Origin: Gammaproteobacteria bacterium
GTDB lineage: Bacteria; Pseudomonadota; Gammaproteobacteria; Burkholderiales; JAHFRG01
Length of the DNA stretch: 64,000 nucleotides
Assembly: GCA_041495205.1 (NCBI GenBank)
Contig: JBGQCF010000002.1
Location: 86,745-150,744, forward strand
Direction: 5' to 3'
This document shows, piece by piece, positions 30,524 through 41,019 of this stretch (its first letter is position 1; the number at the start of each line of letters is the position of its first letter). A program made the translations under genes and the position numbers. The notes under the pieces were generated by a model, which was not told the DNA's origin, made no database searches, and worked only from the letters and a program-made list of their open reading frames with translations.

Positions 30524-30598
30524 TTACCGATTGGCAATATACATCGTGACTTCGAAGCCAAAACGCAAATCGCTAAACTCAGGTTTGCTCCACTGCAT
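30524..30598 (-). CDS. pqqA: PQQ precursor peptide, copy 1 (absent from ORF track)
   Basis: MQWSKPEFSDLRFGFEVTMYIANR with ExxxY; AGGAGA RBS. Confidence 0.97.
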   Translation of the reverse strand: MQWSKPEFSDLRFGFEVTMYIANR

Positions 30599-35929: not shown

Positions 35930-36004
35930 ATGGCCTGGAGCAAACCCGAGTTTACCGATATGCGTTTCGGTTTCGAAGTCACGATGTACATTCTGAACCG
36001 CTAA
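35930..36004 (+). CDS. pqqA: PQQ precursor peptide, copy 2 (absent from ORF track)
   Basis: MAWSKPEFTDMRFGFEVTMYILNR; GGAGA RBS. Confidence 0.97.
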   Translation: MAWSKPEFTDMRFGFEVTMYILNR

Positions 36005-36022
36005 TACGCGATCAAGCTTAAC

Positions 36023-36053
36023 AAAAAGGGCTGCTGAATAGCAGCCCTTTTTT
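36023..36053 (+). terminator. Intrinsic terminator after pqqA2
   Basis: AAAAAGGGCTGCT-GAAT-AGCAGCCCTTTTTT. Confidence 0.9.
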
Positions 36054-36236
36054 ATTTCCAGCCCCCGCTGCCACGTTATAAACCAGCCACGTGGCAAAAA
36101 ACAACGCCTGAGATAACGGCTGAAATCAACCGATGTGGTTGATTTCAAGCACCAGCCAAATAGCGCACAATTTATACGGCTTATGCCCGATTAGCGCCGG
36201 CAGATAAGGTGCATCGAGCCCTATACCGCGCCAGTC

Positions 36237-36264
36237 AAAAAAAAGCCGGGACTTAAGTCCCGGC
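36237..36264 (-). terminator. Intrinsic terminator
   Basis: Minus strand GCCGGGAC-TTAA-GTCCCGGC-T8. Confidence 0.9.
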
Positions 36265-36321
36265 GCAGAGAGGAAGTGGAGAACTACCATGAGCGTCAAA
36301 AAGCTTTAACAAGCACGCAGG
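36237..36321 (-). ncRNA. Putative sigma54-dependent small RNA (~85 nt)
   Basis: Bounded by a perfect -24/-12 promoter and a strong intrinsic terminator; CU-rich core TTCTCCACTTCCTCTCT. Confidence 0.7.
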
Positions 36322-36330
36322 CTAATAATG

Positions 36331-36347
36331 AGCAAGTCCCGTGCCAG
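36331..36347 (-). promoter_or_regulatory. Sigma54 promoter
   Basis: CTGGCACGGGACTTGCT matches TGGCACG-N4-TTGCW exactly. Confidence 0.88.
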
Positions 36348-36385: not shown

Positions 36386-37816
36386 TCAGCTGGTGCCCTT
36401 GAGGGCGTATTTTTCCATGCGGTAGCGCAGGGTCATGCGGCTTACTCCCAGCCTGCGTGCCGCTTCCGAAACGTTGCCGCCGGTGTCAAGCAGTGCGCGC
36501 TCGATAAGCACGCGTTCCGCAGCTTCCAAAGTGAGCCCTTGCAGCGGCAGTTCCCCGGTTGCCGGCACGGGCGCTTGCGACAAGCCAAGATCCGGAACAT
36601 TAATTGCCCCGCCCCGGCTCAACAGCACCGCGCGTTCCACCAGGTGTTTGAGCTCGCGCACGTTGCCCGGCCAGGGGTAGGCGCGCAAGGCATTTAAGGC
36701 GTCATCGCTGAACGAGGGATCAGGCAGCCCATAACGGCGGCTCATCTGCAGCGCGAAATGCCGCGCCAGCAATACCACGTCCTCTGCGCGCTCGCGCAAC
36801 GACGGCATGTTGAGCGTCACCACGTTGAGCCGGTAATAAAGATCGGCGCGAAACTGGCCTTGCGCAATCATTTCCGGCAGTTGCCGGTTGGTGCCGGCGA
36901 TTATGCGCGCGGCAAACGGCCGCTCCACTACCGAACCGATGCGCCGCGTCTTGCGCCGCTCAATCACATTAAGCAGCTTGGCCTGCAGTTCCAGCGGCAA
37001 CTCGCCGATCTCGTCCAGAAACAGCGTGCCGTCCTCCGCCGCCTCGATGAGGCCGGCGCGCGCGCCGTGGGCACTGGTGAACGCGCCTTTTTCATGGCCG
37101 AACAATTCAGCTTCGATCAGATCGCGCGGCAGCGAAGCGCAATCCACTTGCACGAAGGGCTGCGTTGAGCGCGGGCTTAACAGGTGCAACAAGCGCGCCG
37201 CCACGTCCTTGCCGCTGCCGGTTTCGCCGAGAATGAGCACCGTCGGGGCAGGCTCCGCGCCTTCTCCCGCAAGCTCGGCAAGGAGCCGGATTTGCTCGCG
37301 CACCCGCTGCATTGCCGGGCTGTCCCCCAGCAATTGCGCGCCTTCCACCGCATGGCTGTCGCGCTCGCGTGAATAATCGAGCTGATAGCGCAGCCGGGAC
37401 GTTTGCAATACTTTATTCACTGCGAGCAACAGCTCGTCGAGGTCAACCGGTTTTTTCAGATAATCCGCTGCGCCGAGTTTCATGGCGTGCACGGCATCGC
37501 TGATTTCGCCGTACGCGGTAAGCACGATCACCGGCGGCTGCCGGCTCTCCCCGGCGGAACGCAGCTCGGTGAGCAAATCCAGCCCGTTGCCGTCCGGTAG
37601 CCGCAAATCCAGCAGCACCAATTCCGGCGCGGCGTTGCGCGCCAGTTCGCGGCCTTCAGCAAGTGTGGCGGCCAGCAGGCATTCATGCCCGGCTTTTTCC
37701 AGGCGTTTTTTAACCGCGCGTCCGAACAGGCTTTCGTCTTCGATGACGAGAACCCGTGGCATGCCATGAAATTCCTTGGCCGGAGTTTGTGCCGTCATTA
37801 CTTTTTCTGTCATCAA
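36386..37816 (-). CDS. Sigma54-dependent response regulator (REC-AAA+-Fis HTH)
   Basis: DLRLPD, GETGSGKD, ELFGHEKGAFTSA, FLDEIGE, WPGNVREL, AARRLGVSR. Confidence 0.94.
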   Translation of the reverse strand: MMTEKVMTAQTPAKEFHGMPRVLVIEDESLFGRAVKKRLEKAGHECLLAATLAEGRELARNAAPELVLLDLRLPDGNGLDLLTELRSAGESRQPPVIVLTAYGEISDAVHAMKLGAADYLKKPVDLDELLLAVNKVLQTSRLRYQLDYSRERDSHAVEGAQLLGDSPAMQRVREQIRLLAELAGEGAEPAPTVLILGETGSGKDVAARLLHLLSPRSTQPFVQVDCASLPRDLIEAELFGHEKGAFTSAHGARAGLIEAAEDGTLFLDEIGELPLELQAKLLNVIERRKTRRIGSVVERPFAARIIAGTNRQLPEMIAQGQFRADLYYRLNVVTLNMPSLRERAEDVVLLARHFALQMSRRYGLPDPSFSDDALNALRAYPWPGNVRELKHLVERAVLLSRGGAINVPDLGLSQAPVPATGELPLQGLTLEAAERVLIERALLDTGGNVSEAARRLGVSRMTLRYRMEKYALKGTS

Positions 37817-39270
37817 TCTTCCTGTATTTGTTTCGGCAGTATGAGTCTCACTTCAGTGCCGTGCGGGTTGGACGATTGAAACTCGATTTTCCCGCCGTGC
37901 GCATCGCACACTTTCATTGCAAACGGGATTCCCAGCCCTGTACCAAAGCTTTTAGTTGAAGGACCGGGGCTCAAGTCGCCGGCTGCGGGCGTAAACGGCA
38001 TGCCTGAACCTTGATCGGCGATCATCAGCCGGACATCTTGTGCGGTTTCATTCATGCGAATTTCAAGCTTCCCTTGGCGCGGCGAAGCGTCCATTGCGTT
38101 GGCAAGCAGGCCGTGCAGCGCCTGCTCCACGAGTTGCACATCAAGGGCGATTTCAATCTGGCCATCCCATCCCTGGCGCACGACTTGTATCTCTTTTTCC
38201 GCGAGCCTGGGTTTGAGCAGTTCCAGCACATTGTCCACGAGCTGCGGCAGCTTGCAAAGCGAACGTTGCGCCTTGAGAGGATGCAGGTAGGAGAGCAGCG
38301 AATGCGTCCAGCGCTCCAGCCTGTCCGCGGTGCTGATTATTCCGGACAAGCCTTCGCGCAGTTCTGCCGACAATTCGGAGTTGTTGATGATCTGTGCTGT
38401 GGCGCGAATGCTCGCCAGGGGATTGCGGATATTGTGCGCCATCACCGGCACCAGGGCGCCGAGCGTGGCCTGTTTTTCGGCGCGCAACAGCGATTCGCGG
38501 CTTGTTGCGAGATCATCCGCCATTTGGTTTACCGTTTGGGCAAGAGTGACCAGTTCCGCCGCGCCCTTTTCCGGAACCTTGTGCGAAAGATCGCCGTGGC
38601 TGATCAAGGAAGCTGCTTCCTGCAATGCCGACAGAGGGCGGACGATGGCGCGCTGCATGAAGATCCGCGACAACAGCAGCAACACCACGGCAAGTAAAAT
38701 CGGCAGCAACAGCAGCAAAGGCGCAAGCTGGGTGAGGGTGGCGAGGTGGTTTTGCAATTCCGCTTGCTGCAATTGCAGCAGTTGCTCCAGCGCGTTGAAT
38801 GCTTCTTCGTAGCGGCCGAAGCCCGCCATTTCCAGGTCGGTGTCGAAAATCTTGCGCTTTTGCTTGAGCGGCATGCCGGCGCGCGCGCGAGTAATATCCG
38901 CGGCCTGCGCCTTGATGATGTTGTAAGCTTCGCGCAGGCGGTTAATGGCTTCGTGCTCCTCGTTGTACGCGGCGACGCTGTCGAGATTTTCAAGATGCAG
39001 CTCGATGCGCTTCTGGTATTCCTGGTACTGCCTGGCCGCGTCGGGATCGTTTAAAAAAACCGCGTCGAATACTTCCTTGACCTGGCGGTAGAGATTTCCG
39101 CGCATCTCCTGGATTTCCCCCACCATGGAATTGATGCGCAGCGATTCCTCCGATGATTGGTGCCACAGGTAAAGCCCGGCGCCGCCGAGCGCGCCGCTGG
39201 CCAGCACCAGCAGCAGATAACCGAGCGCGTAGAAAAGCATCAGGTGCTTAAGCGATCTGGCTTGAGCCAT
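37813..39270 (-). CDS. Sensor histidine kinase (HAMP-HisKA)
   Basis: Two TM helices, AHNIRNPL, DQGSG, STK..GTGLG. Confidence 0.92.
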   Translation of the reverse strand: MAQARSLKHLMLFYALGYLLLVLASGALGGAGLYLWHQSSEESLRINSMVGEIQEMRGNLYRQVKEVFDAVFLNDPDAARQYQEYQKRIELHLENLDSVAAYNEEHEAINRLREAYNIIKAQAADITRARAGMPLKQKRKIFDTDLEMAGFGRYEEAFNALEQLLQLQQAELQNHLATLTQLAPLLLLLPILLAVVLLLLSRIFMQRAIVRPLSALQEAASLISHGDLSHKVPEKGAAELVTLAQTVNQMADDLATSRESLLRAEKQATLGALVPVMAHNIRNPLASIRATAQIINNSELSAELREGLSGIISTADRLERWTHSLLSYLHPLKAQRSLCKLPQLVDNVLELLKPRLAEKEIQVVRQGWDGQIEIALDVQLVEQALHGLLANAMDASPRQGKLEIRMNETAQDVRLMIADQGSGMPFTPAAGDLSPGPSTKSFGTGLGIPFAMKVCDAHGGKIEFQSSNPHGTEVRLILPKQIQED

Positions 39271-39375
39271 CGAAATTCCGGAGGCAGGAACAAACCCTTA
39301 GCTTACTTGAGTATTGAATTAGCGGGAAACACTTAACCCCGCACCTTCTTCCCGCTGAACCGTGCTTCGCTGCAT

Positions 39376-39415
39376 TCCCTCTCCCCGCGTGCGGGAAGAG
39401 GGTAGGGGTGAGGGG
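39376..39415. repeat. REP-like palindrome
   Basis: TCCCTCTCCCCGCGTGCGGGAAGAGGGTAGGGGTGAGGGG; same family as 26124 and 41617. Confidence 0.8.
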
Positions 39416-39561: not shown

Positions 39562-39578
39562 TTGGCATGACAGTTGCT
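39562..39578 (+). promoter_or_regulatory. Sigma54 promoter facing the porin gene
   Basis: TTGGCATGACAGTTGCT, with GG and GC correctly spaced. Confidence 0.72.
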
Positions 39579-39774
39579 AAGAAACAATGCGCTAAACCAA
39601 AGTGATATAAGCAGTATTGGGTTGAGTGTATCTTTTTTACAACACCCGCCTGAATATGTCGCTTTTATACTTGACACCCTGATTGCAACTGGGGCAGGAT
39701 GCTTACGCTAGATGTAAGTTTCAATATCAGGTTTACTGCACGGTGTGATCAATTTTTTTCAGGAGGAAAAAAAC

Positions 39775-41019
39775 ATGGTAAAGCACAAGAAACTGGGCAT
39801 GGCAGTAGTGGCCGCCTGCGCGCTGTTTGGCGCTTCCGCAGCCAACGCCTTCGGCCCTATCAAAGCCGGTGACTGGGATCTATCTATCGGTGGCGAAGTC
39901 AACGGCTTTTTGACTTACTCTCATTGCGACAACAATAACAGGACAGTTAATGGCGGTCTGGCATGTACGAGTACCAACCAGAAAAGTGTTTCGTCGATAG
40001 AAAGCGGCCTGCTGCCTTCGTTCCTGGTATTCACAGCCAAGACCACCCAGGAAGGCTTTGATATCGGCGCGACGATTGGTTTCTACCCCGGCATTAATAT
40101 TGCCAATTCGGTGGGAGCCAACCCCTCAGCCTTGGGCACTTCGACTATCAATATGCGGCAGAACTTCCTGTTTTTTGGCGACAAGGAAATGGGCACCATC
40201 AAGGTTGGCCGCGATCTGGGTCTTTTGGGCTCTGACGCGATATTGAGCGACTTCACCTTGCTGGGTTTGGGTAGTCCCGCTGGTCCGGTTTCGCCGGGCA
40301 ATACCACCTTGGGGCGCATCGGGGTGGGATATATCTATGCCGACTGGATACCGCAAATCTCCTATACTTCGACCAGTAGTATGGTTGGCGTTGGCGGCTT
40401 GCAGGGCAGCATTGGTATCTACCAGCCTCTTAACGCAGCAAATTTCGGTGGCAATTTTAACACTGGCACCCGTACTGCCCATCAAATGCCTGGTGTTCAG
40501 GGCAAGCTCACTTATGATTATGACGTGGGCGGAGTAACTGGACGCGCCTGGGCCGGGTTCTTCTACCAGAAAGCCGATTCTGCTGTTGTTAACGTCTCAG
40601 GTGCTACCGCCTACGCGGGTGATGTTGGCATCAAGGCTGCCGTAGCCGGCTGGGAACCTGTGCTCTATTATTATCAAGGCAGAGGCGTGGGCACTACTGG
40701 CTTACTGTTAGATGGTATCACTGTTGCGGGCAACAAGCGCAATTCCAACGGCGGTTATGCCCAGCTGGCTTACCGCATGGGCAAGTGGAAGCCCGGAATC
40801 AGCTATGGCTTCAGCCGCCTGGCTTTGGCTGTAGACGAATCCCCCGCAACCAATCCAAGCTTGGTTAACTTCAACCGCTCTGCGATAGCTCAGCTGCAGT
40901 ACAGCCTGACCAAGTCGCTGACTCTGGTGGGCGAATACGTCATGACTCGGGCAACCCCCCAAAGAGGTCTGGGTAACGTGGATGGTACGCTTGCTCTTGG
41001 CGCTATTCTGTTCTTCTAA
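39775..41019 (+). CDS. Outer-membrane porin
   Basis: AGGAGG RBS, signal peptide, beta strands, GTIKVGRD, terminal F. Confidence 0.88.
   Translation: MVKHKKLGMAVVAACALFGASAANAFGPIKAGDWDLSIGGEVNGFLTYSHCDNNNRTVNGGLACTSTNQKSVSSIESGLLPSFLVFTAKTTQEGFDIGATIGFYPGINIANSVGANPSALGTSTINMRQNFLFFGDKEMGTIKVGRDLGLLGSDAILSDFTLLGLGSPAGPVSPGNTTLGRIGVGYIYADWIPQISYTSTSSMVGVGGLQGSIGIYQPLNAANFGGNFNTGTRTAHQMPGVQGKLTYDYDVGGVTGRAWAGFFYQKADSAVVNVSGATAYAGDVGIKAAVAGWEPVLYYYQGRGVGTTGLLLDGITVAGNKRNSNGGYAQLAYRMGKWKPGISYGFSRLALAVDESPATNPSLVNFNRSAIAQLQYSLTKSLTLVGEYVMTRATPQRGLGNVDGTLALGAILFF

Follow-up and report, generated by a model that had tools for sequence, protein, structure and literature searches.

The 64-kb stretch of Burkholderiales DNA analysed here (contig JBGQCF010000002.1, positions 86,745 to 150,744; hereafter the window) very probably carries a genuine sigma-54-promoted non-coding RNA. 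Its gene lies directly downstream of the gene for an NtrC-family enhancer-binding response regulator (EBP) and comprises a perfect -24/-12 promoter, a predicted transcript of about 85 nt and an intrinsic terminator, which are conserved as one module within the genus. As a whole, the explanation that we favour is that this small RNA (sRNA) acts as the adjacent two-component system's non-coding arm and base-pairs with mRNAs in trans. The features of the sRNA locus are as follows.

36346..36332, minus strand: sigma-54 -24/-12 promoter TGGCACGGGACTTGC (consensus scan)
36237..36321, minus strand: predicted sRNA transcript, ~85 nt (start placed from promoter geometry)
36293..36318, minus strand: variable 5' stem-loop (minimum free energy, MFE, fold)
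36266..36293, minus strand: CU-rich core CUCAUGGUAGUUCUCCACUUCCUCUCUG, presumed to be the seed; conserved and mostly unpaired (alignment and folds)
36237..36264, minus strand: intrinsic terminator, GCCGGGAC-TTAA-GTCCCGGC at 36264..36245, then T8 to 36237 (terminator scan)

Anatomy and conservation of the sRNA gene

The sRNA locus, its promoter, the regulator open reading frame (ORF) and the terminator are all on the minus strand, where the order from 36420 to 36000 is the regulator stop codon TGA, a 39-nt spacer, TGGCACGGGACTTGC, ~85 nt and the terminator. An initial annotation, made from the sequence alone, had proposed at this site a free-standing sigma-54-dependent sRNA gene directly downstream of an EBP gene, with a perfect promoter about 40 bp past the regulator stop, some 85 nt of transcript and an 8-bp GC hairpin followed by T8. 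Each of these elements was recovered in our analysis, and the EBP has the receiver, Sigma54_activat and HTH_8 domains. The promoter begins 39 nt past the TGA (36388..36386) and is the sole zero-mismatch match to TGGCAC-N5-TTGC in the window; it is canonical, with GG and GC 10 nt apart, and lies at the proper distance ahead of a short non-coding unit. Looser matches carry no weight and the perfect site alone counts, since 11 one-mismatch matches were observed in the window against a mean of 7.7 in shuffles. Transcription would start at about 36321, the usual start being ~12 nt after the C of TTGC. The terminator stem has 8 pairs, of which 7 are G-C, with a TTAA loop and a U8 tail, and the core sequence quoted in the initial annotation, CATGGTAGTTCTCCACTTCCTCTCTG, is present at 36291..36266. 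The 86-nt RNA folds with an MFE of -25.7 kcal/mol (z = -3.05 relative to shuffles). Across the whole 2.24-Mb genome there are 24 TGGCA[CT]-N5-TTGC sites, and a hairpin with a T-run follows only two of them within ~100 nt, namely the sRNA locus and C23:24679, a second candidate described below.

The GTDB family of the source genome consists of ten genomes, all of one genus. The regulator orthologue is present in all ten, and a DNA search detected the sRNA element in eight; all eight elements lie downstream of the orthologous regulator (82-97% identical over full length). The covariance model R1, which finds a single copy in the source genome at 100.7 bits, identifies a ninth sRNA in the unpublished genome G007 (63.4 bits), ~430 nt past the regulator stop; GGCAC-N5-TTGC lies 10 nt upstream of this match, and the gap between regulator and promoter is ~410 nt. 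TGGCA[CT]-N5-TTGC is kept with exact spacing in all eight published genomes that carry the element, and the promoter is also present in G007. Expressed as mean pairwise identity in an alignment of the genus homologues, conservation amounts to 41% over the 60 nt upstream of the promoter, 90% in the promoter, 47% in the first ~38 transcribed nucleotides (the 5' part), 86% in the CU-rich core, 93% in the terminator, whose stem pairs are kept in 93.8% of cells, and 39% over the 80 nt downstream of the terminator. In G005, ~280 nt of inserted sequence part the promoter from the EBP stop, and the unit from promoter to terminator is intact. Because it stays intact despite this gap and that of ~410 nt in G007, the sRNA behaves as a unit of its own.

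Some intergenic regions carry insertions of palindromic units that are rich in G+C, resemble repetitive extragenic palindromes (REPs) and have the form CCCTCCCC...GGGGAGGG. One of them explains the ~280-nt gap in G005 (L106), and similar units are found between the kinase and porin-like genes of G000, G003 and G005 (in the window at 39340..39415).

Despite its variable sequence, the 5' hairpin is predicted in 7 of 9 homologues, with energies from -6.6 to -12.7 kcal/mol. Both sides change in three of the four pairs of the 5' consensus helix, and its covariation score of 0.274 compares with 0.131 in shuffles (0/500 reach 0.274) and with at most 0.068 in slid-partner controls. For eight related sequences, this covariation would count as supportive and not as proof. 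The core is largely single-stranded in the MFE folds of nine homologues. Together, the comparative data give the sRNA locus the look of a real, free-standing gene.

The unit is non-coding. The sole ATG in the transcript has no Shine-Dalgarno (SD) sequence ahead of it, and a 1-nt indel between genomes (CTCC-ACTT versus CTCCAACTT in the alignment) shifts the only ATG-led frame, which excludes a conserved peptide and makes the core non-coding. The earlier statement that these ~85 nt hold no complete ORF led by a ribosome-binding site (RBS) therefore stands. Crude gene calls place no minus-strand gene 3' of the terminator, between 30775 and 36386, so that the promoter serves the short unit alone.

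The adjacent two-component system and the proposed circuit

The neighbouring genes and a second promoter that bear on the regulation of the sRNA are listed below.

36386..37816, minus strand: NtrC-family enhancer-binding response regulator, 476 aa; receiver, Sigma54_activat AAA+, AAA lid and HTH_8 (Pfam)
37813..39270, minus strand: sensor histidine kinase, 485 aa; HAMP, HisKA and HATPase_c; first gene of the operon (Pfam)
39563..39577, plus strand: second sigma-54-like promoter TGGCATGACAGTTGC, ~200 nt upstream of the porin-like gene (promoter scan)
39775..41019, plus strand: gene for a porin-like outer-membrane protein of 414 aa; diverges from the kinase gene (named via relatives)
35930..36004, plus strand: orphan second pqqA copy (pqqA2), 24 aa, convergent with the sRNA (translation and tblastn)
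30527..30598, minus strand: first pqqA copy, preceding pqqB (tblastn)

The kinase and regulator genes overlap by 4 nt, kinase first. The best NCBIfam matches of the kinase are AtoS/ZraS-like and all far under the equivalog cut-offs, and orthologues that are 80-90% identical occur in seven other genomes. The regulator reaches no NCBIfam equivalog either (AtoC, 376 bits against a cut-off of 714), and the AtoC/AtoS-like matches of the pair stand at about half the cut-off. The Sigma54_activat domain of the regulator scores 205 bits, its Walker A motif is GETGSGK and its sigma-54 contact loop is GAFTSA, a near-canonical variant of GAFTGA. The genome has rpoN (477 bits) and six full EBPs, the window regulator among them.

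Sigma-54 promoters fire only with an enhancer-binding ATPase, and since the sRNA promoter is of this type, such an ATPase is required. In the mechanism that we propose, the membrane kinase would phosphorylate the adjacent regulator, which is most likely the activator of the sRNA promoter; the ~85-nt RNA would be transcribed from its own sigma-54 promoter and end at the terminator that also closes the kinase/regulator operon; and the sRNA would thereby serve the two-component system as its non-coding arm. On balance, we lean towards the adjacent regulator as the driver of the sRNA, on the basis of synteny and of published cases with the same layout. The gene order, in which the porin-like gene diverges from the kinase, regulator and sRNA and pqqA2 converges on them, is shared by all eight genomes examined.

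The same kinase/regulator pair probably also drives the divergent porin-like gene. No Pfam or NCBIfam family matched the porin-like protein; its relatives bear the JGI name 'predicted porin', and a few of them carry PF13609. The gene is syntenic in eight genomes and 55-58% identical in seven of these, while in G004 just a 32-residue N-terminal fragment at a contig end is available (78% identical). Of the eight orthologous intergenic regions, six retain a matching sigma-54-like promoter on this side, whereas those of G006 and G004 have a degenerate one. Given the shared promoter type, the porin-like gene may be co-regulated with the sRNA.

Further blocks are conserved around the porin-side promoter. 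The stretch of ~190 nt between promoter and ATG (39578..39774, plus strand) contains the genus-conserved blocks TGTATCTTTTTTACAACA and TGTCGC-TTTTATA-CTTGACA, the latter of which includes a -35-like TTGACA, and upstream of the promoter lies ACAGTTAC-N6-AATGTCACG. Their conservation suggests a second promoter and/or regulator sites.

With regard to the action of the RNA itself, three parts are distinguished: the 5' hairpin, which is variable; the CU-rich core, which is invariant and unpaired; and a hairpin whose U8 tail is of the Hfq-bound kind. Complementary to the core is GGAGAACUACCAUG, which resembles an SD sequence, a spacer and AUG, followed by AGAGAGGAAG, and this resemblance points to the occlusion of ribosome-binding sites. 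The sRNA would then most likely act in trans, pairing with the SD/start-codon regions of mRNAs and blocking their translation; we consider base-pairing at ribosome-binding sites a likely mode of action. The U8 terminator, the conserved single-stranded core and the presence of hfq in the genome (97.3 bits, over its cut-off) indicate that it is probably an Hfq-type base-pairing RNA.

On the far side of the terminator, pqqA2 is syntenic in 8/8 genomes and 83% identical to the first copy as a peptide, and beyond it lie a LuxR-type regulator and a MoxY-like kinase.

Counter-evidence, targets and rival explanations

Transcript data were sought in public sequencing runs. Part of the region is held by 24 runs, of which six are RNA libraries with small shares, and four (X19-X22) were examined as assembled contigs, which give neither strand nor ends and may reflect DNA carry-over. 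An X21 contig (248 nt, depth 2.9, from a G003-like strain) covers 36238..36319 and ends 10 nt further on, beside the -12 box, which is a weak hint of a transcript of the sRNA in a close relative. X19, X20 and X22 have no contig over 36237..36321, an absence that in assembled contigs carries no meaning. For pqqA2, two metatranscriptome assemblies give coverage at depths of 26-48.

Several observations weigh against the sRNA as the arm of its neighbouring two-component system. The X21 contig, the only one over the sRNA, is of low depth, continues ~145 nt past the terminator and may be DNA. In G002, only 84 nt remain between the regulator stop and the end of the contig, and they contain no promoter. 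The EBP homologues of Methylophilaceae, which are 55-59% identical, have neither a promoter-plus-terminator unit nor such an RNA downstream. No activator-site motif common to the sRNA and porin promoter regions was found, and five other EBPs in the genome could drive the promoter. To these are added the results of the target search: when the 30-nt core was scored against 1890 start regions (from 1906 crude gene calls), the best duplex energy was equalled or beaten by 14 of 30 shuffled cores and the best contiguous helix was reached by 53 of 200, and the gene with the top contiguous match, a molybdopterin oxidoreductase, keeps its pairing in G003 only, being broken in G008, G001 and G009.

As to G002 (L194, G002:C34:1-130), its regulator is 97% identical to that of the window, and the 84 nt past the stop differ from those of G000 and G003. 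An insertion, a rearrangement or a break in the assembly could account for the difference. In most genomes, coding sequence lies upstream of the sRNA promoter, which leaves conservation there uninformative, and a shared 9-mer considered as an activator site lies inside coding sequence and varies at wobble positions; it was treated as a chance match.

The real top 20 duplex energies of the start-region scan (-33.7 to -28.6 kcal/mol) equal the mean of 30 shuffles. The molybdopterin oxidoreductase match consists of 14 bp at the gene start (C24:30267). This query did not recover the gene from G005, G006, G002 or G007, and the G004 match begins at residue 97, at a contig end, where the start region is unreadable; the candidate was rejected as not conserved. 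Other matches that span the indel site were dropped, as they look like mis-called starts inside coding sequence, and a k-mer-seeded duplex scan of the whole genome returned mostly long imperfect duplexes inside coding regions and was uninformative. The initial annotation had noted that the core is partly complementary to the start of pqqA2 and to the RBS of the porin gene, and had proposed a link of the circuit to PQQ precursor or porin translation. The complementarity exists in the sequence but is no better than background, with -17.2 kcal/mol at the pqqA2 start (rank 761 of 1890) and -14.1 kcal/mol at the porin-like gene start (rank 1212 of 1890), and the link itself is not supported by these ranks; shuffled cores give top matches that are equally good. 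Other genomes show the pqqA2 pairing as well, at -17 to -20 kcal/mol, but its 'conservation' merely follows from that of a strong SD and the AUG context, both of which are constrained anyway. As targets, pqqA2 and the porin-like gene would thus be possible but are not supported.

The alternative that survives best accepts a genuine sigma-54 sRNA but assigns its activation to another EBP, for example a nitrogen or envelope regulator, with its present position being historical. The six full EBPs of the genome, the want of an activator site tied to the neighbouring regulator, the distances of ~280 nt (G005) and ~410 nt (G007) from the regulator gene to the promoter, and a sigma-54 sRNA candidate on C23 that adjoins no EBP would all fit this explanation. 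We nevertheless regard it as unlikely, given the synteny with the window EBP in all nine sRNA-bearing genomes and the documented cases of the same order, in which control lies with the neighbouring regulator (PMC9731577; PMC4641369).

The block could also be mainly the 3' untranslated region (UTR) and terminator of the kinase/regulator operon, serving stability or processed release, with the -24/-12 element playing a minor part. No terminator-like site occurs on the minus strand between the regulator stop and the sRNA terminator, which is the only such site after the operon, and RNA-library contigs of X20 and X22 run from the 3' end of the regulator gene past its stop to 36354 and 36342. Read-through from the operon therefore probably also ends at the sRNA terminator, and the two contigs fit this. 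However, the -24/-12 element is 90% identical, compared with 41% for the spacer that precedes it; nine genomes retain it with its spacing exact; and it moves together with the RNA when insertions part it from the operon. A mainly 3'-UTR role is accordingly improbable.

Still less probable, in our estimation, is an RNA that does not act on mRNA start sites at all and works instead by protein titration, or in cis as an antisense or roadblock against the convergent pqqA2. No target stands out, pqqA2 is convergent and syntenic as described, and one RNA-library contig passes the terminator towards pqqA2, up to 36093. Against this, the 85 nt, as read from the sequence, have no repeated GGA or A-rich motifs and are in this respect unlike a titrating RNA; a strong terminator (36264..36237) separates the sRNA from pqqA2, as does a further hairpin with a T-run at ~36020..36052, likewise read from the sequence and absent from the terminator-scan list; and conservation is highest in an unpaired anti-SD/anti-AUG stretch, a trait of base-pairing sRNAs. 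Finally, a tiny peptide encoded from the ATG in the core, within a 57-aa ORF (36126..36299, minus strand), is barely credible, as the ATG lacks an SD sequence, the indel breaks the frame between genomes, and the frame traverses the terminator into sequence that is 39% identical. A base-pairing, sigma-54-promoted sRNA is our preferred reading.

Distribution, look-alikes and known systems

Nowhere in the window does any Rfam 15 family attain its gathering score. Under permissive filters, the top sub-threshold match is suhB/mmgR (RF00519; 22.6 bits, where the gathering score is 41), and the next is Burkholderia ncS16 (RF02866; 21.6 bits, where it is 48). The possible novelty raised in the initial annotation, which a known family would have removed, is thus left in place by the Rfam check. 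Both families resemble the present RNA in being short sRNAs in which a terminator comes after an unpaired, CU-rich stretch, but the match is mostly to the terminator and to low-complexity CU, and the RNA of the window is a member of neither. When applied to 151 genomes sampled from the order, R1 returned four strong matches, one in each of the four genomes of the genus among them, and three weak ones (27-29 bits), and it found none in 30 loci of EBP homologues from Methylophilaceae and 25 further lineages, where the homologues were likewise not followed by a unit of promoter and terminator. A pattern scan of metagenomes gave 49 stretches, and both promoter and terminator were present in only three, two of which equal G008 and G001 and one of which is a new G003-like variant. 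These searches of the order, the EBP-homologue loci and metagenomes indicate that the sRNA is narrowly distributed. Literature searches on sigma-54-dependent sRNAs yielded no paper on this lineage or RNA, and the RNA appears to be undescribed and to fall in no described RNA family.

An sRNA candidate of similar appearance is found in other Burkholderiales metagenome-assembled genomes (MAGs), at six distinct loci (L111, L112, L113, L115, L119 and L123; L096 is identical to L111, and L097 to L123). These look-alikes share a GCGUG..CACGC hairpin, the core UCAUGAUAGUUCUCCA and a CCGGG terminator. Unlike the present sRNA, they have an extended -10 element (TGnTATACT) in place of a -24/-12 promoter and lack the CUUCCUCUCU part. 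R1 scores L111 and L123, the only two of the six that lay in the R1 search, at 28-29 bits; the third weak match, L098 (27 bits), is outside the look-alike set and has no such core. L096 and L097, as well as the unrelated L098, have no Rfam match. Four of the six loci directly follow a gene ending in ...YRKLQR, and the one such gene that was checked encodes an EBP of another type, which lacks a receiver domain and is similar to the window regulator in its AAA+ and HTH parts alone (41% identity). In unrelated genomes, the look-alike 16-mer is also met with by chance, where ordinary gene starts are read as their reverse complement. The look-alikes might reflect either common descent, with a swap of promoters, or convergence on a sequence that is an 'ideal anti-start-site'.

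The second candidate of the genus lies outside the window, at G000:C23:24679-24779 (+), equivalent to L108:3680-3780. Its sigma-54 promoter TGGCACCTTTTTTGC precedes a hairpin, after which come a stretch of invariant sequence, UCAUUCUCCUUUAU, and a terminator ending in T8. The candidate stands just after an apparent tRNA gene, as judged by eye, with no EBP adjacent. A DNA search finds it in 9 of 10 genus genomes, and promoter, core and terminator are invariant in the eight that were aligned (G008 left out); its Rfam matches are sub-threshold only. GCUCAU...UCUCC is common to this candidate and the present sRNA.

A more speculative reading, which we think is probably wrong as a whole, is that the genus runs a sigma-54 'riboregulon' of at least two conserved sRNAs, the present one, tied to an envelope-sensing kinase/activator pair and a porin, and C23:24679-24779, both with a GCUCAU...UCUCC anti-ribosome-site core, and that the core is an old module that would also occur after unrelated EBP genes, with a sigma-70-type promoter, in another Burkholderiales family. 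Were this true, one sRNA core would have swapped promoters and regulators in evolution, and it would control the synthesis of the PQQ precursor or of outer-membrane protein in a methylotroph.

The present analysis adds an undescribed, well-supported sRNA gene to a Burkholderiales lineage that is known only from MAGs and is methylotroph-like, with methanol/PQQ genes that include two pqqA copies and a MoxY-like kinase. This gene and the C23 candidate, taken together, suggest that in this lineage non-coding regulators as well as protein genes are driven by sigma-54. In addition, an orphan two-component system gains a testable output, consisting of the sRNA and the porin-like gene.

In known systems such as GlrK/GlrR-GlmY, LuxO-Qrr and CbrAB-CrcZ, a phosphorylated NtrC-family regulator acts at a sigma-54 promoter and the output is an sRNA. 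GlmY and CrcZ act by protein titration, whereas the sRNA of the window resembles a short anti-SD base-pairer, and it has no Rfam match to GlmY, Qrr or CrcZ. A closer parallel in gene order is NrsZ of Pseudomonas aeruginosa, which is described as an RpoN/NtrC-dependent sRNA downstream of ntrBC (PMC9731577). The order is the same in the two loci, with a kinase, an NtrC-family activator and then an sRNA with its own sigma-54 promoter (PMC9731577). However, the sRNA of the window shows no sequence or structure match to NrsZ in Rfam, even at E up to 10, and its kinase is a membrane HAMP sensor and not NtrB. NrsZ is also longer, repeated and processed. In Desulfovibrio vulgaris, the EBPs DVU0653 and DVU0679 each have a listed target non-coding RNA (ncRNA) immediately downstream of their own gene (PMC4641369). 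The layout of EBP and then ncRNA is the same, in a different phylum. The activator sites there were defined experimentally or comparatively (PMC4641369), whereas none was found at the window locus. The possibly undescribed circuit proposed in the initial annotation therefore stands with respect to the RNA, for which no Rfam family reaches threshold, and not with respect to the gene order, which is already in print for NrsZ (PMC9731577) and for the Desulfovibrio ncRNAs (PMC4641369). As a type, the circuit has been published for Pseudomonas and Desulfovibrio, and no principle is changed; the layout of an activator gene followed by its sRNA is extended to Betaproteobacteria-type Burkholderiales.

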